IMG/VR virus record: IMGVR_UViG_3300005534_000003
Coordinates: 1 to 50,649 of that record
Length of the DNA stretch: 50,649 nt
Reading direction: 5' to 3' (one strand)
DNA from: a virus
Taxonomy: Duplodnaviria; Caudoviricetes
A program made the translations under genes and the position numbers. Below the pieces are notes generated by a model. It searched no databases. It was not told the DNA's origin and was given only the letters and a program-made list of their open reading frames with translations. Below, one piece after another: positions 35,672 to 37,918 of this stretch (position 1 is the first letter of the stretch; each line of letters starts with the position of its first letter).

Positions 35672-37918
35672 TTACGGTTGAACCTGGAGATTCGGGTCCA
35701 TTTGTTTGGCTTTTGGCAAGTTCTGCGCGGGAATCCACTGTGCCGGTCCGCCGTCCGAGGGCTTCACGAGGACGTTCCCCTTCGCCCTGTTGAAATACTG
35801 GTCCGCCAGCTTCGCGCCGCTCGCCTGCAGCTGGGCTGAGCTTGGCTTTATGCCAAGGACCGAGGCGTTCTTCACCGCATTGTCCACGTCCGTGCCTGCC
35901 TGCGCGTGAGCCTTCATGTACAAGTCCGCGTCCTTCTCCTGCTTGGCCACTTGAGCCGACATGAGCTGAAAATACGTATTTAAGTCCTTCTTCATGGTGC
36001 CCTTCGGGGCTCCAATGAGGCTGTTCAAGTGTTCATCCACGCCATATGCGTCAGCAGCAGCGGCCTGCTTCAAGGCGTTGTCGCCCATCTGCGTCTGCAA
36101 CTGTAGCTTCTCGATCCTGTCCTGCCGAGCTTTGTCGAAGTTGGCCAGGGCCTCGTCGCGCTGGGTCTTCTCCATGCTGAATATGTTCTGGAGCGAGTGC
36201 TGCTCTCTGCCGCCCTTCGCCGCGAGTGCGTCGCCGAGGCCGGAGACGGCCTGGGCTATGATGCTGCCGATGCCATGCTGCTGCTCCTGCAGTTTGTTTG
36301 CGAGGGCCTGTCGGTCTTCCGCGTTCACGCCTTCCGTTAACTTCGACGTGTCCTGGTTGAATATGGTCTTGAGATTCGGCATGTCGCTGCTCGCTGTGCT
36401 ACTGGTCCCTCCAATGGCTGTCGAGGGAACCATCGGCGGCATCGTAGGAGTTGGGGCCGTCGGCATCGCAGCCGGAGAAATCGGCGGGGTAGCTGGACCG
36501 CCTGCTATCGGGGGTGTGGGAACCGGCAAGCTCGCGCCGGTGAGCTTATTAACTGCAGACACAGCCGGTGGGATCAGTGGTGCAGCCGCGCTTCCCGCCG
36601 CTTGGGCCGGAACCGCCGCCGCGCCTGCCGCGCTGGCCATAGGGGATGTCACCTGAGTGAGTGCCGCCTTGATCTGGTCCCAGTATGTCGGGTCGCTCGG
36701 GCTCGGGGCAGAGGGTTGCAGGCCGCTCGGCGTCGCGTCGCTGACCGAAACTCCGCCATCCGCGTACTTTTTTATGCCCATAGCCTTGTAGATTTCTTTG
36801 AGTTTGGCTTCGTGCGATAGATCGGTGAGGCTTGGCTTTTCCGGCTCCTTGTTCGCCGGTGGAATCGCGCCACCGTCGGCATGGTGCCACTTTTTCGCGT
36901 TGATGGCGAACTGCGCCCGCTTGCGGAGCGTCTCGTTGTCCGAGTTGGCTGCGTGTTCAAGCTTCTTTTCAGGAATATTTTTGTCCTCGGATACACCAAG
37001 TTCCTTATGCAAGGCTCCTTTCTTTAATCCTTCTAGGAAATGTGGCGTCTTGCCACCCTTTGCCATGTGCGCTGGATTTTCTTTCTCGCCGGTTTCTGTC
37101 GTGGTTGTGGGACCCGCCGGTGCACCCTCCATATGAGTGTCCTTCTTGACCTGCTCGGGGCTCTCGTTCTCTAAAAACGTGACGTGCGGGTAGCCACCCT
37201 CGGCGTAGCCGCCGTCGGACATGGCTCGGGCCATCATGCCGTTCGGCACGGGATGTGCCAAAGAGGATCGCATGACGGGTCCACCTTTTTCATAGTTATT
37301 CGGAGCATATTTCGAGACAGTATTGATATCCGTTGCATTGACTTTGGGCAAATCTCCTAGCTTGTCCGTTTCTTCCATGATTGGAGCGGATTGAGTAGAA
37401 GCTCCCGTCTCGGCGGGCAATAGACCCTTCTCACGCAAAATATGTTCAGGCACCGATGCAGGATCAGAACCATAGCCTAGCTTGGCTATCTCGTCAGGAT
37501 CGCCGCGCACGCCCCATAGTTTTACTTCATTGCCCGTGGGGCTTTTTTGAATTCCTTTGATAAAGGCTTCAACTTTCGGGGCACTCTCAGTCGCCGCTTC
37601 CTCCACTTTCGGGGCAATTGTGATTGCACCCTTCTCGCCCAATCCTTCAATAGCCGGAAGAGCTTCGTTAATAGCTCCTCCTTTCATGGCCGGTCCTAGC
37701 AAAAACGGCAATAGAAAATCCGTCGCGGTCGCATCCTGCACGCCAGGCTCGTTAGGGTCCGGCTTGACCTCTCCGCCTTCGGCCATGTTCTTTCCGCCGT
37801 TTGGATGCGCGTTGTGCAACGCTGCGGCGACGGCCTGGTCATGTGGATGGCCTGACGCAACCATCTCATGTATATTTTTTGCTATTACTTCTTTGGACTT
37901 TCCTTCGTGTAATGGCAT
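35672..37918 (-). CDS. Internal virion / cargo protein, polyprotein-like
   Basis: Seven xAxGG-type motifs separate short modules; helical C-terminal domain. Confidence 0.7.
   Translation of the reverse strand: [748 protein letters not shown]

Follow-up and report, generated by a model that had tools for sequence, protein, structure and literature searches.

A late-operon phage protein with a hypervariable array of small modules on one conserved peptide connector: a possible virion-internal carrier

What does a phage gain from a 748-residue protein whose N-terminal half is divided into small units by one recurring peptide? The question was raised by a sequence-only reading of a 50,649-nucleotide stretch of viral DNA (IMG/VR record IMGVR_UViG_3300005534_000003, here called the window), in which the protein was taken for a polyprotein of modules resembling small phage genes, exchangeable at xAxGG motifs and delivering several effectors in one packaged precursor. 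The ORF was confirmed on the minus strand with an ATG start. The interval assigned to the array in that reading, 36752-37918, corresponds exactly to residues 1-389, and the four protein strings quoted from it are all present in the translation. The parts of the gene are as follows.

35672..37918, minus strand: ORF P0001, 748 aa, variable N-terminal module array and constant C-terminal part
37772..37918, minus strand: module E (residues 1-49), a two-helix unit and member of phrog_2423
37772-37786, minus strand: connector 1, MAEGG (residues 45-49), end of module E
37193..37771, minus strand: segment D (residues 50-242), of low confidence outside its core
37409-37585, minus strand: D-core (residues 112-170), a beta-hairpin with helices, the sole confident part of segment D
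37193-37207, minus strand: connector 2 (residues 238-242), closing segment D
37052..37192, minus strand: segment B (residues 243-289), with a conserved start 'YPHVTFLEN...' and the remainder predicted to be disordered
37052-37066, minus strand: connector 3, MAKGG, end of segment B
36869..37051, minus strand: module K (residues 290-350), a small helical unit with pLDDT >90
36869-36883, minus strand: connector 4, HADGG, end of module K
36752..36868, minus strand: segment C (residues 351-389), a conserved helix and the start of the constant region
36752-36766, minus strand: connector YADGG of segment C, the best conserved of the connectors
36389..36751, minus strand: Pro/Ala-rich region (about residues 390-510), predicted mostly at low confidence
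35675..36388, minus strand: conserved C-terminal domain (about residues 511-748), with no fold or family match

The structure of the protein was predicted with AlphaFold2 from an alignment of 67 sequences (mean pLDDT 65). Confident folds were obtained for E (residues 1-40), D-core (112-170), K (294-345) and one helix (369-379), and residues 575-748 were modelled, at pLDDT 85-97, as long helices plus one small beta element. All five motifs lie in linkers of pLDDT<50 between the confident mini-domains. The proposal that the motifs delimit compact units is thus borne out in the model for E, D-core and K, but not for segment B. The 'central globular unit' possesses a confident core, but this core accounts for only about 60 of the 193 inter-motif residues. 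The fourth unit named as an exchangeable module turned out to belong to the constant region: K372, G381 and G388 of segment C are invariant among the orthologues. A C- or H-type segment stands directly before the C-terminal domain in 69 of 107 orthologues, and in 3 further ones a single short unclassified segment lies between the two.

Searches with the 748-aa protein retrieved no Pfam family at E<=1 (none at E<=10 for its segments), nothing but module E in PHROGs and 0 matches at E<=1 among PDB sequences; the whole-protein model, compared with the PDB by Foldseek, gave nothing at E<=0.001. In a search of 50,697 phage records the sole match was to module E, 7% of the protein, and no relative was found in 185,579 prokaryote genomes.

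The connectors were analysed at the level of the peptide and of the DNA. The motif [MYFH]A.GG starts at residues 45, 238, 285, 346 and 385. Five copies of [MYH]A[EDK]GG are present in residues 1-389 against 0.08 expected; composition-preserving shuffles contained a mean of 0.076 motifs, and 5 were reached in 0 of 20,000. Of 8 copies of the motif in the 77 ORFs of the window (15,630 aa), 5 belong to the 748-aa gene, one to each flanking gene and one to the extreme N-terminus of an unrelated ORF. The logo from 433 sites in 108 orthologues reads K-[M47%/Y40%]-A-[E40/D34/K11]-G-G-x-[V40/P18/I15], where A, G and G are fixed by construction, the sites having been selected by regular expression. In 40 motif copies from 9 genes, Ala is encoded by GCC 10, GCA 13, GCG 8 and GCT 9 times, Gly is likewise encoded by mixed codons and the first codon is either ATG or TAY. 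As the codons vary freely, selection acts on the peptide, and the motif as a DNA-level element (a recombination signal or an internal ribosome-binding site/start) was rejected.

The position of the motif relative to the modules was assessed with HMMs built from stand-alone modules only. A.GG immediately follows the module in 29 of 49 K fusions and in 73 of 104 E fusions; the strict form is missing in 20 and 31 of them respectively, some of which carry variants such as MDEGG. The modules that the connector follows are fused to at least four unrelated partners downstream, some of them in other phage lineages, and stand-alone modules are devoid of it, their ORFs stopping exactly at its expected start. 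Tandem copies with no module in between are found in the 748-aa protein and, as YAKGGMPKMYAEGG, in two-module proteins, while a 104-aa E-B protein, P0151, has a terminal YAEGG and then a 7-residue tail. A purely flexible hinge would need no conserved M/Y-A-E/D, which counts against a plain hinge role for the connector. A literature search on the motif strings gave no phage work among the top-ranked titles, and the motif-bearing protein family 'MKGFKDSTRMK...' was not recovered from viral contigs.

Two of the units had been thought to resemble small basic proteins encoded singly in other phages, and a segment-by-segment search agreed with this for E and K, both of which have many stand-alone homologues. 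Module E matched positions 1-42 of phrog_2423 (52-position profile), a small phage protein of unknown function, at 2.8e-10 with the whole protein and 3.3e-12 with residues 1-49. It was detected by tblastn in 149 phage records. Pseudomonas phage O4 and Caulobacter phage CcrColossus encode it on its own, in genes of 48 aa, and of 66 distinct E-bearing ORFs from viral contigs 39 are stand-alone. Module K aligns end to end with stand-alone basic phage proteins of 54-88 aa; 45 complete stand-alone ORFs in that size range were obtained among 80 viral loci, and the protein collection contains 45 proteins of at most 80 aa. E is present in at least 391 viral contigs and K in at least 203. The stand-alone E and K ORFs are strongly basic (43-90 aa), and at 10 of 12 stand-alone K loci terminase, portal, capsid or tail PHROG matches lie within 4.5 kb. 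Segment D is rarely encoded on its own: just 30 relatives were found among 1.84 billion representatives, nearly all within orthologue-like proteins and 2-3 possibly stand-alone. Neither D nor segment C had a tblastn match in the 50,697 phage records, and module F, an alternative first module, had matches at E 0.02 only. E and K also head longer proteins. E begins a 193-aa protein in MW202675, directly upstream of a 'putative acetyltransferase' gene which is followed by an 'internal virion protein D' gene, as well as DUF2213 'head maturation protease' proteins of BcepB1A and Acinetobacter AB2; K begins proteins of 1457-1463 aa carrying PG_binding_1.

Comparison of orthologues showed that they are not collinear, as a modular array predicts. 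On a conserved C-terminal ~360 aa, 78 complete-looking orthologues display 58 different N-terminal architectures, with five to ten motif-delimited segments per protein. The architecture was shared in 1 of 311 pairs with 80-99% identical C-termini, an apparent diversity inflated by the dereplication of the protein clusters at 90% identity. Hardly any other part of these genomes changes as quickly as the N-terminal array, as would be expected of an interface for host interaction or counter-defence. The proposed exchange at the motifs is in line with the presence of A.GG at the junctions of K and E fusions, but indel boundaries are only ~2-fold enriched there: in a blind pairwise test on indels of at least 20 aa, both ends of an insertion lay within 5 aa of a motif in 4.5% of 396 insertions versus 1.5% at random. 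Alignment imprecision is likely, and the test does not prove exchange exactly at the motifs.

Module K connects the protein to a characterised virion component. It shows 73% identity over 26 aa (tblastn, E 8e-5) to gp080 of Bacteroides phage DAC15, which carries a crAss_CARG1 domain (Pfam E 2e-52) and is a homologue of PhicrAss001 gp45, i.e. crassvirus cargo protein 1 (PDB 7qog chain M, Pfam PF25725 crAss_CARG1). In gp080, two tandem K-like units ending in HAEGG and KAEGG are located just upstream of the portal-binding crAss_CARG1; gp45 has one copy, ending in NAFGG. The presence of gp45 in the virion as cargo, threaded from portal to tail, has been verified by mass spectrometry and cryo-EM (Bayfield et al. 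2023, PMC10172136). The 748-aa protein and crassvirus cargo protein 1 thus have the K-type module in common, but the former is without the CARG1 domain and without similarity to the C-terminal region of gp45, and its module array is much larger and more variable.

The gene is located in a tightly packed late operon of a record that encodes portal and large terminase; a putative major capsid gene and several large, conserved genes for structural proteins precede it. The order capsid-144-688-308-943-208-635-72-439-748-627 is the same in 8 relatives (viral contigs of ~50 kb), as far as the stretches retrieved from them extend. The presumed tail genes nearby gave 0 useful PDB or PHROG matches; since they are unannotated, synteny with the T7-type order, where ejection proteins are encoded directly downstream of the tail-tube genes, is an analogy. 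Three other genes of the window bear on the argument.

37920..39239, minus strand: upstream neighbour, 439 aa, with a glycine-rich hydrophobic stretch
33775..35658, minus strand: downstream neighbour, 627 aa, with Gly/Ala-rich hydrophobic stretches
30677..31408, plus strand: protease, 243 aa, with an N-terminal hydrophobic anchor and a DegS/HtrA-like serine protease domain

In its C-terminal part the 439-aa neighbour contains YSKGG..YADGG (residues 353-357, 38169-38183) and then HDHAICMKLGG...SPGELVIPRSV; all 6 syntenic relatives retain the motif. In the 627-aa neighbour, MAEGG occupies residues 589-593 (33880-33894), 34 residues from the C-terminus, and is kept in 3 of 6 relatives. A CARG1-like portal-binding domain at the C-terminus of the 439-aa protein was considered and rejected (BLASTP E 0.41, nothing in Pfam at E<=10, hhalign probability 1.7%), so that its likeness to CARG1 is a hint only.

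The reading we favour, with confidence that is evenly balanced, is that the 748-aa gene of a short-tailed phage encodes a composite virion-internal carrier, whether of ejection, internal-virion or cargo type, loaded with hypervariable passengers. Helix C, the Pro/Ala-rich spacer and the ~240-aa helical domain would form the constant C-terminal vehicle. The N-terminal part would be a hypervariable string of passengers (E, D-core, K and others), very small and each folding by itself, which the connector K-[M/Y]-A-[E/D]-G-G-x-V joins within flexible linkers. Most likely the chain would enter the capsid and leave it like beads on a string, every bead being small enough for passage through the tail channel or for quick refolding. 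The connector could then serve as a hinge and a short recognition element and not as an obligatory cleavage site. We infer in the same manner a virion location and an action of the passengers after ejection; their charge, as read from the sequence, suggests nucleic-acid binding or early interference with the host or its defences.

Podovirus internal virion proteins have been described as hosts of variable passenger domains bound for the cytoplasm (Hardies et al. 2016, PMC4819975), a concept that fits both them and the 748-aa protein. In both cases there is a block of several large, fast-diverging, mostly helical proteins (T7 gp14-16, P22 gp7/16/20) late in the structural operon; however, Pfam, PHROGs, PDB and Foldseek detected no similarity of sequence or fold between them. 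The passengers differ as well, being many mini-domains of 25-60 aa on one conserved connector instead of lysozymes/enzymes, and the passages of PMC4819975 on internal virion proteins describe no such connector. Polyvalent proteins are phage-encoded, portal-terminase-linked chains of two to 15 unrelated domains, which are extensively shuffled, predicted to be packaged and delivered with the DNA and proposed to be released by proteolysis (Iyer et al. 2017, PMC5512222). With five to ten segments, and portal and large terminase in the record, the 748-aa family is similarly multi-domain. Polyvalent proteins are, however, defined by enzymatic/anti-restriction domains, often with a zincin-like peptidase (PMC5512222), and these are lacking from the 748-aa protein in Pfam: its segments matched no signature effector or peptidase domain (zincin-like peptidase, ADP-ribosyltransferase, nucleases) at E<=10. 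A term search of the polyvalent-protein paper did not find the connector motif. The modules of the 748-aa protein are tiny and non-enzymatic, unlike the domains of polyvalent proteins. In T4, internal proteins, which are small and basic, are put in the capsid by a capsid-targeting sequence and delivered with the DNA; in adenovirus, basic core-protein precursors are cut at (M/I/L)XGG, after GG. In contrast to both, the passengers considered here are concatenated on a carrier and do not each have their own targeting peptide. Relative to the adenovirus site, the hydrophobic residue of the connector is one position further from GG, and no cognate protease was found.

The possibility of a true polyprotein, as the sequence-only reading had it, is the next to be weighed. 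The connectors would be cut after GG, in the capsid or post-ejection, and a phage-specific cocktail of mini-proteins (E, K, D-core and others) would be freed into the cell. GG-ended sites are used by the adenovirus protease, the ASFV polyprotein protease, the coronavirus papain-like protease and in polyubiquitin processing. The motifs are conserved at the peptide level, exposed in disordered linkers and confined to junctions; free-standing homologues end at the motif start, as would a mature module-only product; the motif is common to three adjacent proteins (439, 748 and 627 aa); and the 7 residues past the terminal YAEGG of P0151 are hard to explain as a linker. However, no fitting protease was found in the record. 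Pfam recognised among 48 ORFs no protease other than the 243-aa HtrA/DegS-like enzyme, which is kept in 8 of 8 relatives and is probably periplasmic, given its N-terminal membrane anchor. Its homologue is absent from the complete genomes of DAC15 and MW202675, both of which have motif-joined modules. Because of the anchor, the likeness to DegS/HtrA and this absence, the enzyme is a weak candidate for processing. In addition, cleavage has no need of tandem motif copies, and the passages on gp45 in the crassvirus paper (PMC10172136) hold no 'cleav' or 'proteoly' wording. The portal-bound domain of gp45 starts there at residue 425, which, by counting along the gp45/DAC15 alignment, is the A of the degenerate NAFGG, before GG. 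A true polyprotein is therefore regarded as rather doubtful. A broader proposal, that K-[M/Y]-A-[E/D]-G-G is a processing signal of many phage lineages including crAss-like ones, whose ejection polyproteins inject reshuffled basic micro-proteins of 40-60 aa, is more speculative again, and we think it unlikely. If it were true, the micro-proteins would act on incoming DNA or host defences before phage gene expression, and the abundant stand-alone genes for E and K beside portal genes would encode these same factors, which would reach the virion in a different way.

A non-ejected structural or assembly protein, scaffold-like or tail-associated, appears improbable. On this view its N-terminal units would serve as spacers or as pads for binding, and the motif would be a peptide docking to portal, capsid or scaffold during assembly. 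The C-terminal domain is predicted to be long-helical like scaffolding proteins, the prohead protease-scaffold proteins of BcepB1A and Acinetobacter AB2 carry a fused E, both neighbours have a single motif near the C-terminus like a common recruitment tag, and tandem copies would suit a multivalent docking element. Yet the gene does not lie between the portal and capsid genes, and by position a better scaffold candidate, just upstream of the capsid gene, is an ORF truncated by the record start (at least 311 aa), which is followed by a 67-aa ORF. Spacers are also not expected to turn over so fast and still match free basic phage proteins. The K modules in the crAss-like cargo protein 1 of DAC15 favour an ejected cargo over an assembly role.

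That the motifs and units are mere composition effects, a notion invited by the Pro/Ala-rich low-complexity stretches and 13 GG dipeptides of this Gly/Ala/Pro-rich protein and credited with next to no likelihood, is refuted by the shuffles, by retention of the motif in more than 100 orthologues and in unrelated lineages, and by the confident folds and hundreds of homologues of the modules.

Little is known of what podoviruses inject along with their DNA, since ejection proteins have diverged too far to be recognised. To this problem the locus offers a handle, consisting of a conserved connector peptide and of two mini-protein families, E and K, that are abundant but unnamed. Their members are encoded on their own beside portal genes, as fusions with proteins of ejection type and within a gut crAss-like cargo protein. 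If the connector is a cleavage or docking signal, packaged passengers could be found in uncultured phages by sequence alone.

A model of stand-alone K (pLDDT 80) gave a best VIA Z of 4.3; in BFVD its best E was 1.9e-3, with none at E<=0.001, and nearly all entries were uncharacterised phage proteins. An identity of module K or F with DUF3008 (PF11450) was not confirmed by Pfam: K had no match at E<=10, and F had none to DUF3008 at E<=10 as a segment or at E<=1 in the proteins starting with it. A literature search for DUF3008 found nothing. A true DUF3008 domain (E 1.7e-7) is paired with a K module in a viral protein of 416 aa.

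The observation on the 748-aa protein P0001 is confirmed and its modular reading is largely right: its modules E and K have independent homologues, modules have been both gained and lost among its orthologues, and a short peptide motif is found at the junctions. What is new here is the conserved connector peptide, together with a pair of abundant, unnamed mini-protein families linked to it and an extreme turnover of the module array. The window, 50,649 bp long, represents a complete viral record. The interval 36752-37918, which the sequence-only reading had assigned to the protein, corresponds exactly to residues 1-389. 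The gene and its surroundings are as follows.

33775-35658, minus strand: 627-aa downstream neighbour
35672-37918, minus strand: 748-aa ORF (P0001), ATG start
37920-39239, minus strand: 439-aa upstream neighbour
48814-50100, minus strand, same operon: weak major-capsid match (phrog_14242, E 0.004)

The P0001 gene starts 1 base past the stop of the 439-aa ORF and ends 13 bases before the 627-aa ORF. It therefore lies within a tightly packed minus-strand operon, which also encodes several large unannotated proteins. Genes for a portal, large terminase, family A DNA polymerase, primase-helicase and trypsin-like peptidase are located elsewhere in the record. The order of neighbouring genes is the same in 8 related viral contigs wherever the fetched stretch covers it.

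Five motifs of the form [MYFH]A.GG are present in P0001 (MAEGG, YAEGG, MAKGG, HADGG and YADGG, starting at residues 45, 238, 285, 346 and 385). The xAxGG motifs first noticed in the sequence alone are real, as shuffled P0001 gave a mean of 0.076 hits and none of 20,000 shuffles reached five. Scanning 77 ORFs (15,630 aa) from the record yielded 8 hits; besides the five in P0001, there is one near the C-terminus of each flanking gene and one at the very beginning of an unrelated ORF product. Among relatives, the motif is retained in the 439-aa neighbour in 6/6 and in the 627-aa neighbour in 3/6. The consensus from 433 sites in 108 proteins, picked by regular expression, is K, M (47%) or Y (40%), A, E/D/K (40, 34 and 11%), G, G, any residue, and V/P/I (40, 18 and 15%). 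The motif codons vary freely, and thus the conserved entity is the peptide and not the DNA.

A search of a large protein collection (8,000 scored candidates) recovered 116 relatives at E<=0.001, of 424-1069 aa, many on contigs of ~50 kb and none with a protein name; all but a few carry 2-10 motif copies. When 108 proteins were cut after each motif and the 542 segments clustered at >=70% reciprocal coverage, 15 families of at least three members took in 513 segments, with 29 left unclassified and family B heterogeneous. The C-terminal ~360 aa (family A) are constant and all preceding sequence is variable. P0001 has the architecture E-D-B-K-C-A; relatives include E-D-B-C-A, F-D-B-K-C-A, E-D-N-J-B-B-x-L-C-A and F-H-A. 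The expected module gain and loss was observed, with 58 architectures among 78 complete-looking proteins (first segment E or F, last segment A) from a collection dereplicated at 90% identity. The architecture was shared in 0/8 pairs with the last 240 aa 90-99% identical, and in 1/303 pairs at 80-89%. Dereplication, the unclassified segments and the mixed family B qualify these counts.

The proposal that modules are exchangeable at the motifs held in part. Architectures do differ by motif-cut segments, but in blind pairwise global alignments 4.5% of the 396 insertions of at least 20 aa had both ends no more than 5 aa from a motif, vs 1.5% with random placement, an only weakly positive indication that insertion boundaries may fall at motifs. 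The last segment before A, which contains the fourth of the units proposed earlier, is constant and not exchangeable: the segment immediately before A is C or H in 69/107 proteins (in 3 more with one short unclassified segment between), and K372, G381 and G388 are invariant in a 67-sequence alignment. Modules move between adjacent genes too, since in a related contig (L016) the homologue of the 439-aa neighbour (4846-6591, plus strand) has a K module that follows YAEGG and YAYGG.

An AlphaFold2 model of P0001 was built with the 67-sequence alignment (mean pLDDT 65, pTM 0.39). Its confident parts are listed below.

Residues 1-40 (E): two helices, pLDDT 83-95
Residues 112-170 (core of D): beta-hairpin and helices, pLDDT 79-94
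Residues 294-345 (K): helical, pLDDT 91-96
Residues 369-379: single confident helix
Residues 575-748 (C-terminal part): long helices, pLDDT 85-97

Each of the five motifs lies inside, or on the border of, a stretch with pLDDT <50. The description of compact units bounded by the motif thus holds for E, for K and for the D core, not for B. Fold searches with the whole model and with a separate stand-alone K model (pLDDT 80) gave no informative match.

Independent homologues of inter-motif segments, which had been predicted, were found for E and K. Module E matches phrog_2423 (52-position profile, E 3e-12), and the module is found in 149 phage records. In Pseudomonas phage O4 (gp21) and Caulobacter phage CcrColossus (gp096) it is encoded on its own as a 48-aa protein with a lysine/arginine tail; the O4 gene comes immediately after those for the endolysin and two very large proteins. 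The module also opens DUF2213 'head maturation protease' proteins of Burkholderia phage BcepB1A and of Acinetobacter phage AB2. In MW202675 it begins a 193-aa protein directly upstream of a 'putative acetyltransferase' and then 'internal virion protein D'. Viral contigs encode E at 391 loci; the best 80 gave 66 distinct ORFs, 39 stand-alone, 16 with A.GG within 20 aa and 11 continuing without it. In two-module forms (86-112 aa), where E is joined by YAEGG to an acidic helix, connector residues A41, G43 and G44 are invariant in 17/17 aligned sequences.

Module K has no Pfam or PHROG family match and is encoded in 203 viral contigs. Among the best 80 loci, 45 are complete ORFs of 54-88 aa and 34 have K inside longer ORFs, including 1457-1463 aa proteins with K in the N-terminal region and a peptidoglycan-binding domain. 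An unannotated 61-aa stand-alone K ORF lies at the record end of Tunturiibacter phage Tunturi_3 (PP885686.1; L007:2474-2659, plus strand), with 52% identity to module K over 50 aa (E 7e-7). In the ESM Atlas, the closest clusters hold unnamed viral proteins 59-65 aa long. In a search for shorter proteins (117 at E<=0.001 among 2,483 candidates), 45 were K proteins <=80 aa with net charge +5 to +20 (median +12), 14 were E proteins <=80 aa (net charge 0 to +10) and 21 were E proteins of 81-120 aa. Stand-alone K genes lie in morphogenesis modules: 10 of the 12 loci examined have terminase, portal, capsid or tail PHROGs no further than 4.5 kb away. The other two have, respectively, only an unknown family recurring in the other contexts and a position right after a 1932-aa DarB-like protein. 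In this last arrangement, seen in contig L047, the stand-alone K gene (5977-6168, plus strand) is directly downstream of 17-5815, whose 1932-aa product matches DarB-like antirestriction PHROGs.

For module D, 1.84 billion representatives were scanned in full with HMMER and only 30 matched at E<=0.001, mostly inside orthologue-looking proteins of 430-812 aa; two or three D-bearing proteins of 184-214 aa may be free forms. D and C had no match in phage records, and the alternative first module F had weak matches only.

To avoid circularity, HMMs were made from stand-alone, motif-free K and E proteins only and run on all fetched proteins and ORFs. The K HMM gave 136 distinct complete hits; the protein ends with the module in 87 and continues in 49, with A.GG at -4 to +16 residues from the module end in 29/49. 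Of the K fusions lacking A.GG, five have a variant GG connector (MSEGG, AKEGG etc.), a sixth reads AEGD, and about a dozen motif-free ones represent one giant-protein lineage. With the E HMM, 104 of 111 hits continue; A.GG is present in 73/104, and MDEGG, MNEGG or MSEGG in no fewer than a dozen others. The partners that follow the modules are mutually unrelated (D, I and G segments of the orthologues, the acidic helical module, an 'HVGPIHS.VAGRTDHLP...YVIP' domain and others). These comparisons mark the motif as a junction element.

The clearest link of the modules to experiment is gp080 of Bacteroides phage DAC15, which is matched by module K and has two tandem K-like units ending HAEGG and KAEGG. 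It contains a crAss_CARG1 domain (E 2e-52). Its alignment to PhicrAss001 gp45 (PDB 7qog chain M) reaches E 5e-98, and gp45 holds a single K-like unit, which ends in NAFGG. As described by Bayfield et al. 2023 (PMC10172136), gp45 is part of the virion cargo and was detected by mass spectrometry; its residues 425-552 are portal-bound and 214-245 lie inside the tail barrel, and the authors expect ejection N-terminus first. Long Gly/Ala-rich hydrophobic stretches in the neighbours of P0001 resemble the N-terminus of DAC15 gp080 and would fit membrane-active ejection proteins. In Hardies et al. 2016 (PMC4819975), the internal virion proteins of podoviruses are presented as carrying variable passenger domains bound for the cytoplasm; Iyer et al. 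2017 (PMC5512222) treat polyvalent packaged proteins and suggest that proteolysis releases domains. A packaged precursor delivering effectors is a hypothesis that the context makes plausible. By sequence, P0001 matches neither described IVP families nor crAss_CARG1 and is thus not placed in any defined family; it was filed as a variation on the theme of internal-virion, cargo or polyvalent proteins.

Cleavage at the motifs is the least secure part of the packaged-precursor reading, with points both for and against it. The motifs are exposed, conserved at the peptide level and junction-specific, and free homologues stop where the motif begins: when 23 stand-alone K proteins were aligned with the module of the window, the free proteins end ...NAKKW[HKN][HK], exactly where ADGG of the fusion begins. 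However, only one protease was recognised in the record.

30677-31408, plus strand: 243-aa DegS/HtrA-like serine protease with N-terminal hydrophobic anchor

Its His, Asp and Ser motifs are present and its best PDB match is DegS (E 5e-7); these features point to a periplasmic and not a capsid location. The protease is kept in 8/8 relatives and one distant 52 kb phage, but the complete DAC15 and MW202675 genomes have no homologue. Possible roles are envelope remodelling, superinfection exclusion and lysis. Further, the ordered portal-bound domain of gp45 is reported to begin at residue 425 (PMC10172136), which by count on the gp45/gp080 alignment is the A of AFGG and hence before GG, and the text examined of that paper contains no 'cleav' or 'proteoly' wording. 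Motif copies in tandem without an intervening module, one in P0001 (a 10-residue string) and YAKGGMPKMYAEGG in other proteins, fit a binding or hinge element better than they fit a site of cleavage.

Other features of the record were also noted. Residues ~345-400 of the 439-aa neighbour (YADGG...HDHAICMKLGG...EGDSEEN..SPGELVIPRSV) resemble the start of the crAss-like cargo protein 1 portal-binding domain (EGDSHEN...NLVEEGEVVF), weakly (BLASTP E 0.41, hhalign probability 1.7%); this C-terminus is also like 'TDHLP..G.YVIP' proteins carrying module E. Within the structural block, the 688-aa protein at 45579-47645 (minus strand) shows the lowest conservation (29-56% identity; 343-688 aa in relatives) and is probably the host-recognition fibre or spike, given that it weakly matches a trimeric adhesin stalk (E 0.003). 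Two endonuclease VII-type genes (48467-48814 and 11994-12545, both minus strand), one of them between the capsid and tail genes, have counterparts at varying places of the same operon in relatives, as expected for mobile homing-type nucleases. Adjacent genes at 24855-26342 (plus strand) with nucleoside 2-deoxyribosyltransferase-like and dATP/dGTP diphosphohydrolase N-terminal domains hint at a modified nucleotide pool or modified DNA. A small collagen-repeat protein (15146-15622, plus strand) and a sigma-70 region 4 protein (17877-18278, plus strand) are encoded in the plus-strand block upstream of the replication genes.
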